A DNA stretch of 33,609 bases, taken from a bacterium (GTDB lineage: Bacteria > Krumholzibacteriota > Krumholzibacteriia > Krumholzibacteriales > WJIX01). The stretch is taken from positions 1 through 33,609 of the forward strand of contig WJIX01000240.1 in assembly GCA_014730075.1 (NCBI GenBank). The letters run 5' to 3'. Position numbers and translations under genes: made by a program. The notes under the pieces are model-generated. The model made no database searches. It saw only the letters and a list, made by a program, of their open reading frames with translations, and was not told the origin of the DNA. Positions 12,542 to 28,793 of this stretch are shown here, in pieces; the first letter of the stretch is position 1; each line of letters begins with the position of its first letter.

Positions 12542-15500
12542 CTACTCCAGGCAGGAGAACCATCCGCCCTCATGAATGATTATTTCATCCGGGCGCGAGA
12601 CCGGACCGGTAATCCGGTATTGGTATTCGGCGTCGATCCTCATCCGGCAGGTTGCTACCCCGCCGGGGATTCCCAGCTTCAGGAAAGGGCCTGAGTAGCG
12701 GGCAAAGTAATATGGTGATGGGACTTCCTCAGGTATCTTTATACTTCCTGCGTATCCCCCGGTGGGCAGAAAGAGAAACAGCTTCCGGTCAAAGAAATTA
12801 TTACGGCAGATTATCACCCCCCTGTCAGAAAGGGCGCTGAGCCTGAACGGCACCTTCATGCCATCATTTACCGCCGCTTCCAGCCCCGACGCGGGCACAA
12901 AGCCCGCCCTGCCCCCCTGGTTGATCATCAGACCCCTGTCCGGGTCCCACGCCGTTATAACGGTTCTCCGGTCCATTCCGCATACTGCGATAAGTGCGGG
13001 ATTGATGCCGGTTTCCATCCTCTCCGTGAATATTTTCCGCTCCGGGTGATAGATTATAATCAGGCCTCTGTCCCCGTCAGATATATACAGCAGATCTCCA
13101 TCCGAAGCGATATCGGAAGGTGTTAATCCATAGCTGCCCAGGTCCAGGATACGGCCGGGACCTTCCTCCGACGAGATCTCGAGGACTTCCCGGTTGTTAT
13201 TATCAAAAGCGAATACCCTTTCCCCGCAAACGGCGAATTCACTTATATTCCTGAGCGGATTGCCGGGAGAGGGCCTTGCTATCCTCTCGGCTCCGTCCAG
13301 GAAATAGCGGACCCCCGCCGGCCCGATCTTTACCTGCCGGTCACCGTAGAGAAATACAGGGTTTCCCCCTGCCACCTCCTCCATGGAGCATTCTCCGGCG
13401 TAATCAAGATATGCCGGATTCATTCTAACCTCTATCGTTTCACCGGACACCCGGAATACTCTCTCTGCTACCGAGGGTAGAAAACCTCTTCCGGAAAAGA
13501 CGAAGATATATCGCTTGCCGCTCCGCAGGCCCATGAGCTTCCGCACCGGCCCCTGGTATATCACCGTATTCAGATCGCTCATTACGGTGAGGTTGATATC
13601 TGACAGCGCCGCTCCGGCTACCTCAATATTGACCCTGACATCATCGCGCAGGTAGGCGAACTCCGCCGGCCCGCGCAGTCTATCCCTGTTCTGCATCTTA
13701 ACTGACCATGGATGAAGAAGGGTGGGCGGCTGCACACAGGCGCTCCAGAGCTCAAGTGAGCGCTCCAGCTGATCGAGGATCAGCCCGCGGGTAAAATTGC
13801 CTTCACTCTCGCCGGCTCTCAGCATATCGTACCTTACGCAGAGAGGGCCTATCTCCGGGCCGGAACATTCCGCCCCTGCAGCTTTCTTTTCCCAACCGGC
13901 TTCTCTGAGAAGCGGGAGCATCCAATTCATTCCATCTGCTGCCTCTGTCAGGCAGGCGCTCCGGGCCAGAAGATTGTGGTCTGCACCCTCCCTGGCCTGG
14001 TAACCGATTATATAAGCGGCCCTGGGATCTACCGAACTGATCCGGCTCAATTCCTCCCTGGACCGGTCCAGGAACCTTCCCCTTACCTGTCTTTCCATTA
14101 CCGCCCGGTAATACCTGGCCTCATTCCGGTAACGGGCGGGCCAGTGATCTATCCGGTCACCGGCCAGTATCTCTTCCAGCACCCTGTCCAGGGCATCGCG
14201 GTTGTCCGGAGAGCCGTTTCCGTCGGTGTCTCCCAGGGGGGCCGAGTTGATCAGGGAGAATGCCCGGAGGAGGGATAGCTCGGCTTCGGCCTCATCACCC
14301 GGTGCCGGCATCCTGTCCCCGGCAACCCTGAAAAGCATATATGCCGCGGTGTATAGAATTCTTCTCTTTCTCTCCTGTGAACTGCTGAGCCTGGGAATGC
14401 AGTTGGCCATGGTCATGGCTGCGGATCCTGCCTTTCTGCATTCTTCACTGCTGCAGGCCGCACTGTAACGTGATAGCAGAAATTCAAGATTCGATTCGGA
14501 GGGGAATCTCTTCCCCGACCGGCTGCCTTTATCCGCCAGCGGCATCATCCGGGAGAGAAGCTCCAGCCACCTGTACTCCGGCCTATCCGGAATCGCCCTT
14601 CCCGGCTGCTCCGCTGACAGAATATCACAGTAGGCCCTTCGGAGGTGCCGGCGGTGTGACAGAACCGAATCGATTCCGCCGCCGTTGACACTCCGGGGAC
14701 TGCTTCTGAAGAGACCGGCGGGCAGATTCTCCAGCAGGCGGCTGCCGGAGAAGAATTTATTCTTGTCCTTCTGAAGATAGCCGTTCATCGCGGACAGGTC
14801 GCTCCAGAGTCTCGCCTCCCCGGTCAGCCCTCCCGCTCCGCCGGCAGGAAGATTGGCTATCAGGGCCCTGCTGGCTATGATAATATCACTGCGGCCCCCC
14901 TCCAGCCGGTCGATATCAAGCCCGCCGAAGAGATTGAATCTTCCGGCCAGCTGTTCCTGATTAAGGCGGGCGAGCTCCCCCCTGTTTTTGTCGATCCACT
15001 GATTTACCCTTCCCGCCGCCCTCTGAAGGAGCGAAAGATCCGCCAGGTACCTGGCCTGCCCTGCTGCCGGAGTACCCTCCAGCTTTGCGGCCACCTGCTC
15101 AGCATACTCCCTTATCTTCGCAAATTCAGAATCCAGCTGTTCCATAGTCATTCTCTCCAGGGCGGGTATCCCCGCCGGGAGCTGACCGGAACCGGGCTGA
15201 TCCTCACTTTTCATAAAGTGGTAAGCTCTGGCTAAACGGGCTTTCAGCCACCTGCTATAGAGGTGGTAGAAATGAGCGGCCTTCCCCACAGCTTCCCGTA
15301 ATTTCAGACCTGCGAATATCTCTTCCGCTTCGGAGGCCGCGCGGTATCCCTCCCCGCTCGGCATGAGCGAATCAAGTGCCTCCTTAGCCCTGGCCAGGAC
15401 CGCGTAACCGCGCAGGAACCGGCGCTGGTACTCCAACCCACGGCTGTCAGGCCGGTCCAGGATCTCAAGCGCCCGATCCAGCCCGGCAGCTTCTCCCCCG

Positions 15501-15964
15501 CTGTGGTATGAGCGTATTCCGCACCAGGCCACCATATACGCGGCAAAATCCTTCTTGGCCGGATCCAATCCAGATTCCCCGCTAAGGCTGACTTCCCGGA
15601 ACAGCTTGGCTGCGACGGCAAAATCGGCAGCCTCGCCTGTGGCTATTCCCCTGATATAATAGAGATATGCCTGGATATATTTCAGGGTCCAGACCTGGTA
15701 TTCGGAGAGGCGCCCCGCTGACGAAAGAACACTGTCCAGCTCTGATATCCGTACCTCCATATCCGCTTCCGGAACCCTGGACGGGTCCTCCACGAAGGAG
15801 CCGACCATCCTGACCGATCTCTCCATAACCCCGGAGATATCCTCCTGGCATAAAGCGGAAGTGCCCGTAAGCAGGGAACCCGCCAGAATGATGCTCATAA
15901 CCGCCATCCGGAAAAACCGTGTGGCATTGCCGGCAGAGTTGGTATTCAGTTCCCTCAATATCAT
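12542..15964 (-). CDS. Large exported hypothetical protein: alpha-helical (TPR-like) region, PEGA/Ig-like domain, C-terminal NHL-like beta-propeller
   Basis: Signal-like N-terminus. Helical repeats with AxY/F motifs (YIQAYLYY, AAYMVAW, EARYYRA). A beta domain near 13415-13650. Propeller blades such as PSDIASDGDLLYISD and VFAFDNNNREVLEI. Last gene of the operon. Confidence 0.6.
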   Translation of the reverse strand: MILRELNTNSAGNATRFFRMAVMSIILAGSLLTGTSALCQEDISGVMERSVRMVGSFVEDPSRVPEADMEVRISELDSVLSSAGRLSEYQVWTLKYIQAYLYYIRGIATGEAADFAVAAKLFREVSLSGESGLDPAKKDFAAYMVAWCGIRSYHSGGEAAGLDRALEILDRPDSRGLEYQRRFLRGYAVLARAKEALDSLMPSGEGYRAASEAEEIFAGLKLREAVGKAAHFYHLYSRWLKARLARAYHFMKSEDQPGSGQLPAGIPALERMTMEQLDSEFAKIREYAEQVAAKLEGTPAAGQARYLADLSLLQRAAGRVNQWIDKNRGELARLNQEQLAGRFNLFGGLDIDRLEGGRSDIIIASRALIANLPAGGAGGLTGEARLWSDLSAMNGYLQKDKNKFFSGSRLLENLPAGLFRSSPRSVNGGGIDSVLSHRRHLRRAYCDILSAEQPGRAIPDRPEYRWLELLSRMMPLADKGSRSGKRFPSESNLEFLLSRYSAACSSEECRKAGSAAMTMANCIPRLSSSQERKRRILYTAAYMLFRVAGDRMPAPGDEAEAELSLLRAFSLINSAPLGDTDGNGSPDNRDALDRVLEEILAGDRIDHWPARYRNEARYYRAVMERQVRGRFLDRSREELSRISSVDPRAAYIIGYQAREGADHNLLARSACLTEAADGMNWMLPLLREAGWEKKAAGAECSGPEIGPLCVRYDMLRAGESEGNFTRGLILDQLERSLELWSACVQPPTLLHPWSVKMQNRDRLRGPAEFAYLRDDVRVNIEVAGAALSDINLTVMSDLNTVIYQGPVRKLMGLRSGKRYIFVFSGRGFLPSVAERVFRVSGETIEVRMNPAYLDYAGECSMEEVAGGNPVFLYGDRQVKIGPAGVRYFLDGAERIARPSPGNPLRNISEFAVCGERVFAFDNNNREVLEISSEEGPGRILDLGSYGLTPSDIASDGDLLYISDGDRGLIIIYHPERKIFTERMETGINPALIAVCGMDRRTVITAWDPDRGLMINQGGRAGFVPASGLEAAVNDGMKVPFRLSALSDRGVIICRNNFFDRKLFLFLPTGGYAGSIKIPEEVPSPYYFARYSGPFLKLGIPGGVATCRMRIDAEYQYRITGPVSRPDEIIIHEGGWFSCLE

Positions 15965-15977
15965 CAGCTCCTCTCTC

Positions 15978-28677: not shown

Positions 28678-28777
28678 GGACCCTCCATTATATGATCTCT
28701 GGAAAATTTGAGGCCGAATGATACTTCCCTCCCGCACATGATACAGAATTCCGACACCAATGACTGACTTCTCGATT

Positions 28778-28793
28778 CGCAATAGGTATGCCC
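28778..28793 (-). promoter_or_regulatory. Putative sigma54 (-24/-12) promoter of the 9-gene PorV/ExbBD operon
   Basis: The minus strand reads GGGCAT-ACCTA-TTGCG (GG-N10-GC; consensus TGGCAC-N5-TTGCW), ~100 nt upstream of ATG 28677. Confidence 0.65.

Follow-up and report, generated by a model that had tools for sequence, protein, structure and literature searches.

A conserved nine-gene module that may couple an ExbB/ExbD-type motor to a PorV-like barrel with its own cargo

To our knowledge, few systems carry proton energy from the inner membrane to the outer membrane or the cell surface: Ton, Tol-Pal, Agl-Glt and the GldLM motor of the T9SS (type IX secretion system). A DNA stretch of 33,609 nucleotides (nt) from a bacterium of the order Krumholzibacteriales (hereafter the window; contig C203, WJIX01000240.1, in genome G000) holds a module of nine genes that unites parts of two energy-transfer systems, an ExbB/ExbD-type stator and T9SS-type carrier and cargo proteins, in a fixed and conserved arrangement. 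The genome comprises 2.87 Mb in 338 contigs and is 82% complete. The locus raises the question of whether these genes serve one machine and, if they do, on what its motor would act.

We think it probable that the module encodes one machine, in which a motor is coupled to a dedicated carrier barrel and that barrel's own cargo. The view is supported by the linkage of the genes, by two subtypes that share their parts, by conserved cargo, by the PorV-like fold of the barrel, by motor motifs that have been kept, and by the presence of SprA, PorU and PorV in the genome; from the sequences we further infer that motor and barrel are physically coupled. Each part belongs to a known superfamily, and it is the combination of T9SS-type carrier and cargo, ExbB/ExbD-type motor and an adaptor with tetratricopeptide repeats (TPR) and an NHL propeller that looks undescribed. 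Our literature searches returned only papers on the Bacteroidota T9SS, on Ton/Tol and on Agl-Glt; we came across none that connects PorV to an ExbB/TolQ motor cluster (supplementary tables were not covered) or that contains both "KSB1" and "T9SS", and the available part of a paper on the Zhuqueibacterota (KSB1; PMC11683472) has 0 occurrences of TolQ, ExbB or PorV. This agrees with an earlier interpretation made from the DNA letters of the window alone (the sequence-only reading), which knew of no characterised system of such composition. With nine compact genes, the module offers a genetic handle on how mechanical work reaches a PorV-type carrier, which is thought to be the energy-requiring step of type IX secretion.

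The module and its conservation

In the list of open reading frames (ORFs) of the window, the module appears as nine closely spaced ORFs that all run in one direction on the minus strand, from 12542 to 28782. The features, in the order of transcription and with lengths in amino acids (aa), are:

Upstream boundary, 28779..29026, minus strand: the preceding gene is followed by a terminator-like hairpin (29026-29000), and a sigma-54-like element lies at 28793-28779
Cargo 1, 24115..28782, minus strand: 1555 aa, secreted, with FN3-like repeats and a C-terminal T9SS type-A sorting domain
Cargo 2, 23070..24107, minus strand: 345 aa, secreted, with a C-terminal sorting domain
PorVx, 20983..23094, minus strand: 703 aa, a PorV/FadL-type 14-strand barrel followed by an all-helical C-terminal domain
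ExbB1, 19401..20981, minus strand: 526 aa, an ExbB/TolQ-like stator subunit
ExbB2, 18073..19395, minus strand: 440 aa, a further ExbB/TolQ-like subunit that has an N-terminal domain of its own
ExbD1, 17358..18071 (longest ORF to 18182, 274 aa), minus strand: about 237 aa, ExbD/TolR-like, with an enlarged C-terminal domain
ExbD2, 16684..17325, minus strand: 213 aa, ExbD/TolR-like
Small anchored protein, 15978..16691, minus strand: 237 aa, with one N-terminal hydrophobic segment; the rest is presumably periplasmic
Large protein, 12542..15964, minus strand: 1140 aa, with a signal peptide, a TPR-like solenoid, an Ig-like sandwich and an NHL-type propeller; presumably periplasmic

PorVx likely starts at the ATG at 23073. 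With this start and the ATG at 18071 for ExbD1, both in frame, the gaps between consecutive genes are 7, -4, 1, 5, 1, 32, -8 and 13 nt; with the longest-ORF starts instead, the two overlaps become 25 and 110 nt. For cargo 1, the ATG at 28677, immediately ahead of the signal peptide, is the likely start. Downstream lies a convergent gene for peptidase C69, whose end is at 12531, and together with the upstream hairpin it bounds the module at both ends. All nine proteins carry a signal peptide or a membrane anchor as judged by hydropathy. The sequence-only reading had described nine co-directional genes separated by -8 to +32 nt, and all of the ORFs were found where it had placed them, at matching distances; family scans, hydropathy and AlphaFold2 (AF2) models also agree with the protein order and topologies that it gave. 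In line with its statement that the cluster has no TonB-dependent receptor, tolB or pal gene, Pfam and NCBIfam scans of the nine module proteins gave no match to any of these families.

In 25 of 27 loci the same arrangement recurs: one or more cargo genes, PorVx, one or two ExbB genes, two ExbD genes, the small protein and the large protein. The other two stand on short pieces of contig, 7.0 and 4.5 kb long, with nothing but the distal genes. The loci were sampled through the large protein (26 loci) or the long ExbB (locus L028), so the counts tell whether the other genes are present given that protein; 26 further loci were annotated with BLAST and with hidden Markov models (HMMs) built from the first set. 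Protein identity between loci is only 20-35%, and the retention of the same order in 25 of 27 loci is far beyond what chance would give. At L028, which lies in candidate division KSB1 and was the only locus found in a scan of species-representative genomes, the same nine genes stand in the same order as in the window; eight show one-to-one similarity at 22-35% identity, and the ninth, the small anchored protein, corresponds by position only. The sequence-only reading had joined the PorV side and the motor side into one unit and had proposed to look for conserved synteny. The order is indeed conserved in two phyla, the second ExbB being confined to one subtype; as a statement about genes the claim is strongly borne out, whereas its physical side stays conditional.

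Two subtypes can be distinguished, A with two ExbB genes and B with one, and every other part is common to both. Two genomes, G208 and G263, carry both subtypes together. Among 15 further informative loci, a homologue of cargo 1 was found in 15 of 15, an ORF with a sorting tail directly upstream of the barrel likewise in 15 of 15, and the small protein in 14. Modules also occur in tandem, in G263 and G215, and one locus has an extra cargo gene inserted. In G263, contig C25 has a subtype-A cluster (L042, whose cargo gene is cut at the edge) with a subtype-B large-protein gene that ends about 1 kb ahead of the point where the fetched sequence of this cluster begins, while contig C14 of G215 holds two subtype-B modules (L064 and L065) about 34 kb apart.

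Six loci have extra ORFs next to the barrel gene, and these may be lineage-specific accessory parts. They lie between barrel and ExbB in L062, L063, L067 and L068 (344-386 aa) and in L064 (660 and 713 aa), and between cargo 2 and barrel in L042 (511 and 535 aa). The two in L042 have no Pfam match; the others gave no match to the module's own HMMs, the sole libraries used for them.

The module proteins have few relatives in large sequence collections. A search of 5.8 billion clustered proteins gave 14 for the long ExbB; the large protein has two by word search, and 13 full-length relatives plus fragments by profile search among 1.84 billion representatives; for the barrel, a word search gave three full-length relatives only. 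For two pairs of such relatives, the longest contig given is identical (75,309 and 16,464 bp), which suggests that they are encoded together. When metagenome contigs were scanned with the alignment of the long ExbB, 547 patterns matched and not one was confirmed.

Motor, carrier and periplasmic proteins

Both ExbB-like proteins match the MotA_ExbB family, ExbB1 with 76 bits and ExbB2 with 57.5 bits (cut-off 22.9), and both have kept the motifs of transmembrane helices TM2 and TM3. ExbB1 scores far below the cut-off of the TolQ/ExbB equivalog models TIGR02797 and TIGR02796, and its profile matches to solved ExbB and TolQ structures span TM2-TM3 only. Hydropathy places an extra N-terminal domain of about 160-190 residues ahead of TM1 in both proteins. 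ExbB1 begins with a signal or anchor segment and continues with this domain (about 165 aa) and TM1; a cytoplasmic domain, about 200 aa long, in which the motif GLxNHLxNxNxWWxSQEIDRAIDR is conserved, then precedes TM2-TM3; by analogy with ExbB topology, the N-terminal domain would be periplasmic. ExbB2 is restricted to subtype A, with orthologues in L028 and L042-L045. A tree of the C-terminal parts of ExbB proteins (21 rows) leaves 12 of its 18 inner branches open, and so neither joins the module's ExbB proteins to ordinary Ton or Tol systems, a grouping that the sequence-only reading had named as evidence against its view, nor sets them apart; the contrast in family scores and architecture given below serves in its place.

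The extra domain of ExbB1 provides a lead: residues ~48-158 may have a fold like the C-terminal domain of TonB. All ten rows of an Atlas structure search are TonB_C or TonB-family clusters, at TM scores of 0.40-0.46 ("under the bar"); eight of them carry TonB_C, and rows 9 and 10 are TonB by name only. An hhalign comparison of the domain with the genome's own TonB gave E 0.086 at 0.7% probability, and Pfam TonB has no match in eight of eight members of the ExbB1 N-terminal family. If such a fold is real, the stator itself would bear the partner-binding domain that TonB normally provides.

The two ExbD-like proteins match Pfam ExbD (PF02472) with 25.7 bits (ExbD1) and 35.2 bits (ExbD2), in each case only across the membrane helix (positions 5-33 of the 128 in the profile), and the LIDxxFLLLIFF membrane motif with its Asp is kept in every copy that we examined. 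An hhalign comparison shows the two to be full-length paralogues (156 columns, probability 99%, E 3e-18), and the ExbD2 profile also aligns with the genome's own TolR/ExbD (121 columns, E 5.9e-5, probability 65%).

Besides the module, the genome has four other MotA/ExbB-family genes. Contig C11 carries a Ton set of a DUF3450-ExbB, a second ExbB of 242 aa, a full-length ExbD (97 bits), a TonB_C protein, a TPR protein and a Plug-domain receptor, all confirmed by Pfam except the 242-aa ExbB, which is known from its MotA_ExbB match. A Tol-like set on C258 consists of a MotA_ExbB protein (TolQ), a full-length ExbD (TolR) and a TonB_2/TolA-like protein, and C159 encodes MotA (by its MotA_ExbB match) and MotB (by Pfam) in an apparent flagellar cluster. 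Ordinary ExbD in this genome covers positions 4-127 of PF02472 at 97 bits, in contrast to the 26-35 bits over the membrane helix alone in the module. No paralogue of the motor half was found elsewhere in the genome. Because family scores and architecture differ, and because Ton, Tol-like and MotAB sets exist elsewhere, the sequences indicate that the module is an extra, architecturally distinct motor, separate from the Ton or Tol system of the cell. Other ORFs on C159 resemble hook, FliF, FliG and FliI proteins (without a Pfam check), so that the organism apparently already has a swimming motor.

On the carrier side, the label PorV that the sequence-only reading had given to the barrel holds by fold and falls short by sequence. 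PorVx reaches 59.9 bits with the PorV_fam model (NF033709; cut-off 90), over model positions 4-159 of 326 only, and the NCBIfam scan also lists PorV2 and PorQ matches. The AF2 model, built from six sequences (predicted local distance difference test score, pLDDT, 70.3), has a short helical N-terminal segment, 14 strands (residues 89-362) and an all-helical part (383-693); the barrel region spans about residues 45-365 and the helical extension about 330 residues. The best fold matches are the PorV chains 8gl6_F and 6h3i_F of the Flavobacterium translocon (Foldseek TM 0.57/0.58, ranks 1 and 7). Superposition on 6h3i_F (VIA) gives Z 27.8, a root mean square deviation (rmsd) of 4.2 and 20% identity over 289 aligned residues; FadL and TodX follow close behind, with Z 23.9-26.4 and Foldseek ranks 2-6. 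The most conserved part of PorVx is a hatch-like N-terminal segment with the motif WNPAGL. Since an even number of strands puts both ends of a barrel on the periplasmic side, the helical extension would be a periplasmic "handle".

Cargo 1 matches Por_Secre_tail/TIGR04183 (31.9 bits, cut-off 23), FlgD_ig (36.1 bits) and fn3, and has a single hydrophobic segment at residues 42-60; its homologues head the KSB1 loci, with 25-36% identity over more than 1100 residues. Cargo 2 shows weak matches to FlgD_ig, CHU_C and TIGR04183 (16.8 bits), all below the cut-off, and over the tail it shares 40% identity (E 5e-15) with the second cargo of L028, whose own tail is FlgD_ig-positive.

The genome also encodes the secretion route that such tails would use, outside the window. 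SprA, for which the sequence-only reading had asked to search, is present as a 2120-aa frame on C169 (489.9 bits summed), and PorU (454 bits) adjoins PorV (204.9 bits) on C335. In total, 12 PorV-like matches and about 45 ORFs with a sorting tail were found. All 41 genomes of the order have SprA, and all 41 have PorV-like barrels; SprA is also present in each of the five module-bearing KSB1 genomes tested. The GldL (TIGR03513) and GldM (TIGR03517) models gave no match in this 82% complete genome, nor GldM in the 41 genomes of the order or in G208, nor GldL in the five module-bearing KSB1 genomes; control genomes were silent as well. GldK and GldN genes were not recognised in the family scans of the module, although no search was aimed at these families.

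The large protein was modelled with AF2 from 15 homologues (pLDDT 77.9, predicted TM score 0.63) as a helical repeat (~43-743), a beta-sandwich (~779-862) and a six-bladed propeller (~868-1110). Residues 39-451 superpose on the TPR protein Pins (4a1s_A; Z 18.3, rmsd 3.6, 303 aligned), the C-terminus superposes on six-bladed NHL propellers (Z 14-16), and the Filamin-NHL protein Lin41 is among the top Foldseek matches. A similarity to chain 8gl8_I of the extended T9SS translocon was set aside as generic TPR likeness, with Z 14.3 but an rmsd of 13.6 (VIA, whole model). Between subtypes A and B, homology of the large proteins extends across 845 columns (hhalign probability 98.5%, E 2e-15). Pfam and NCBIfam gave no match for either the 1140-aa or the 237-aa protein, and an Atlas search with the latter was uninformative (scores under 0.8, low TM). 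In other loci the place of the small protein is taken by proteins of 190-232 aa that carry an anchor or a lipobox at the N-terminus. A Pfam scan of ten excised accessory domains yielded nothing meaningful. A complex prediction for residues 41-700 of the large protein with residues 375-703 of PorVx scored 0.00, with controls not run, and speaks neither for nor against binding.

A proposed machine and its alternatives

Based on these parts, we suggest a self-contained, envelope-spanning machine, driven by the proton motive force, that would be devoted to its own two T9SS-type surface proteins. The two FN3-rich proteins would leave the cell through the genome's SprA translocon by means of their C-terminal sorting domains, which would be held by PorVx; unlike canonical PorV, this carrier would bear a periplasmic helical handle of about 330 residues. 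The long ExbB/TolQ-like protein or proteins and the two ExbD/TolR-like proteins would form a proton-driven stator of the 5:2 type in the inner membrane, and the small anchored protein and the TPR-Ig-NHL protein would bridge the periplasm to the handle, so that the motor could do mechanical work on the complex of PorVx and cargo.

What this work would achieve can be envisaged in more than one way. According to PMC10994853, the carrier of the Flavobacterium T9SS, while in the translocon, binds substrates through its extracellular loops, and energy is needed to release the substrate-carrier complex. We tentatively favour, at somewhat less than even confidence, an output of this kind: the motor would extract the PorVx-cargo complex from the translocon and deliver the giant protein to the surface, where PorVx would stay as its anchor. 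A close second, by analogy with GldLM-SprB/SprF and AglRQS-Glt, is a motor that would go on working once export is complete, moving or tensioning the adhesin-like protein. On a broader view, which we hold to be rather unlikely, the module would be a third, independently evolved class of proton-driven machines of the cell surface, in which a TolQR-type 5:2 motor moves, tensions or retracts a giant FN3 adhesin through a TPR-NHL adaptor and a PorV-type barrel. If true, this would be a gliding or active-adhesion apparatus of KSB1, mobile enough to cross into another phylum.

Several points weigh against this interpretation. Family scans recognise no TonB- or TolA-like transducer and no GldM-like protein spanning the periplasm in the module, so that the path of the force is a guess, and the window's small protein has no detectable similarity to its positional counterparts. 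PorVx lies below the PorV-family threshold by sequence, and FadL homologues are nearly equal to PorV in the comparison of the modelled fold, so that a channel role is possible. As for extraction as the output, 40 of 40 relatives with SprA lack the module, and other sorting-tail proteins of more than 1100 aa in the same genome have no motor gene next to them; size alone thus does not require a dedicated motor.

The closest parallel to the motor half, by composition only, may be the core complex of Agl-Glt, especially for subtype B. PMC3169522 describes one TolQ-like protein (AglR), two TolR-like proteins (AglQ and AglS), a TonB-like anchored protein (GltG) and large TPR proteins (GltD, GltE and GltC) for the Agl-Glt/Nfs systems. 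Subtype B has exactly one TolQ-like and two TolR-like proteins, clustered likewise with a small anchored and a very large TPR protein; like Agl-Glt, the module would work with outer-membrane barrels and surface adhesins and appears to spread horizontally as one block. They differ in that the module has no recognised Pro-rich TonB-like protein and uses a PorV/FadL-type barrel with T9SS-type surface proteins. With the T9SS proper, the module shares cargo with type-A sorting tails, a 14-strand carrier of the PorV type, a motor of the 5:2 class, a large periplasmic TPR protein and a genome that encodes SprA, PorU and PorV. Its motor, however, is of the ExbB/ExbD rather than the GldL/GldM type, with no GldM-like spanner recognised, and its carrier has the helical extension and its own conserved cargo, in a patchy distribution among SprA-bearing genomes.

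Looser parallels are SprF/PorP-SprB of Flavobacterium gliding, where a dedicated FadL/PorV-clan barrel is encoded beside the giant surface protein that it holds, although the tail of SprB is of type B and the motor genes are unlinked; and Slam of type XI secretion, where a 14-strand barrel is fused to a periplasmic helical-repeat domain, although the TPR part is N-terminal, the barrel belongs to another family and no motor is linked. Within the genome itself, a pair without a motor is found on C236 (L055:45-5474): a gene for a 1175-aa sorting-tail protein is followed by one for a 631-aa barrel that matches PorP_SprF (38 bits) and PorV_fam and has clear C-terminal TPR repeats, and downstream lies a 1400-aa SpoIIE/STAS/HATPase regulator. 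A scan for PorV-like barrels gave frames of about 632 aa in many relatives, and such pairs of cargo and barrel-TPR fusion seem to recur in the phylum even without a motor.

These pairs speak for regarding the locus as two independent units that happen to be neighbours, one made up of cargo and PorV and the other of a Ton/Tol-type motor and its TPR partner. We find this scarcely credible, since adjacency and order are kept in 25 of 27 loci, in both subtypes and in two phyla, the gap between the halves in the window is 1 nt, and the motor half has no paralogue elsewhere in the genome. The sequence-only reading had considered an alternative energiser for the T9SS, and in its general form, with the ExbB/ExbD set replacing GldLM/PorLM for all type IX secretion, this is very improbable. 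It draws on the missing GldL and GldM matches in the genome, in the order (GldM) and in the tested KSB1 genomes, on the roughly 45 sorting-tail ORFs, and on the 5:2 class that the T9SS motor has in common with ExbBD. But the GldL/GldM searches had silent controls, so that absence is not established, and the relatives in the order, which have SprA and PorV-like barrels throughout the 41 genomes and many PorV paralogues, do without the module (the large protein is present in 1 of 41, and the N-terminal part of ExbB1 in 1 of the 208 genomes of the phylum), while in KSB1 about 67 of 167 genomes have it; unlike a general energiser, the module also always brings its own conserved cargo. For an order with SprA throughout and many sorting-tail proteins in the window genome, yet with no GldM/GldL match (controls silent), this raises the question of what powers type IX secretion there.

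A Ton-like importer, in which PorVx would be a FadL-type channel whose hatch is pulled by the motor and the surface proteins would capture substrate, like the glycan-binders beside SusC, is improbable but has more in its favour. FadL and TodX are close structural matches, the hatch-like WNPAGL segment is the most conserved part of PorVx, motors of the ExbB/ExbD class normally power import, and the TonB_C-like lead in ExbB1 would fit. However, the cargoes carry sorting tails and have no recognisable binding or catalytic domain besides FN3/Ig, the module has no TonB box, Plug or TonB protein, and the TonB_C lead is weak in both the hhalign and the Pfam comparison; known FadL channels run without energy. 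The likeness to Ton is otherwise confined to the MotA_ExbB domain, the ExbD-type membrane helix with its Asp and the passing of energy to an outer-membrane barrel, in the absence of any receptor and with an ExbB of twice the usual length that has extra N-terminal and cytoplasmic domains. Highly unlikely, too, is an envelope system of the Tol-Pal kind, in which motor, TPR-propeller protein and barrel would tether or remodel the envelope, for example in assembling an FN3 surface layer. A TolQ/TolR-like stator with TPR, beta-propeller and an outer-membrane partner does parallel TolQR, CpoB, TolB and Pal, and also PorE, described as CpoB-TolB-Ig-Pal in PMC12204202. The genome, however, has a separate TolQ/TolR/TonB_2 set, the module lacks TolA, a TolB-family match and a peptidoglycan-binding OmpA_C/Pal domain, its propeller is of the NHL type, and its patchy presence among relatives is unlike that of a housekeeping envelope system. 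We retain the single machine acting on PorVx and its cargo as our preferred reading.

Distribution, origin and neighbouring genes

The module is common in KSB1 and rare in the phylum of the window. With the subtype-A profile, the large protein is found at full length in seven of 167 KSB1 genomes, and 97 more match only in the propeller repeats or a short N-terminal stretch; the subtype-B profile finds 62 of 167 at E <= 1e-25. As two genomes have both subtypes, this amounts to about 67 of 167 genomes (the denominators include G366 and G370, which have partial propeller-repeat matches only). About 40% of the sampled KSB1 genomes are thus marked by a large, probably surface-active apparatus; the gene set recurs in many uncultured bacteria of sediments. 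In the phylum and the order of the window, the single genome with the ExbB1-specific part (of 208) and with the large protein (of 41) is the window's own; a genome of the same genus, 94% complete, is without the large protein, and one other genome of the phylum gives a partial match to the subtype-B profile. The module is therefore present in one or two of 208 genomes of this phylum.

In a tree of the large protein rooted with subtype B, the window copy groups with two relatives, and this group falls inside a clade that also holds the copies of the KSB1 genomes G278 and G279 (support 99 in the Shimodaira-Hasegawa-like approximate likelihood ratio test, SH-aLRT). The nesting of the window copy among KSB1 copies, together with the rarity in its own phylum, suggests that the whole block was transferred from a KSB1-like lineage into that of the window. 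Base composition shows no sharp island at the module. A search of sequencing runs gave none of RNA and only three of DNA, which come from a single study and hold small shares.

The sigma-54-like element upstream of the module has the form GG-N10-GC with two mismatches to the consensus and lies about 100 nt ahead of the ATG at which cargo 1 likely starts. A search for the pattern gave 22 matches where 22.1 were expected, so that the element is not significant alone. Further upstream on the same strand, at 31001-33609 (minus), are a histidine kinase and a sigma-54-dependent response regulator. Between these regulators and the module, at 29056-30806 (minus), lie genes for a 322-aa predicted lipoprotein without a family match and a 207-aa OMP_b-brl protein; both were considered as parts of the module and excluded, as neither is conserved beside it in other genomes. 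On the other side of the module, at 6353-8089 (minus), an ORF of 578 aa combines a weak match to AMP-binding enzymes (residues 207-319) with a PanD aspartate decarboxylase domain (459-565), an unusual fusion.

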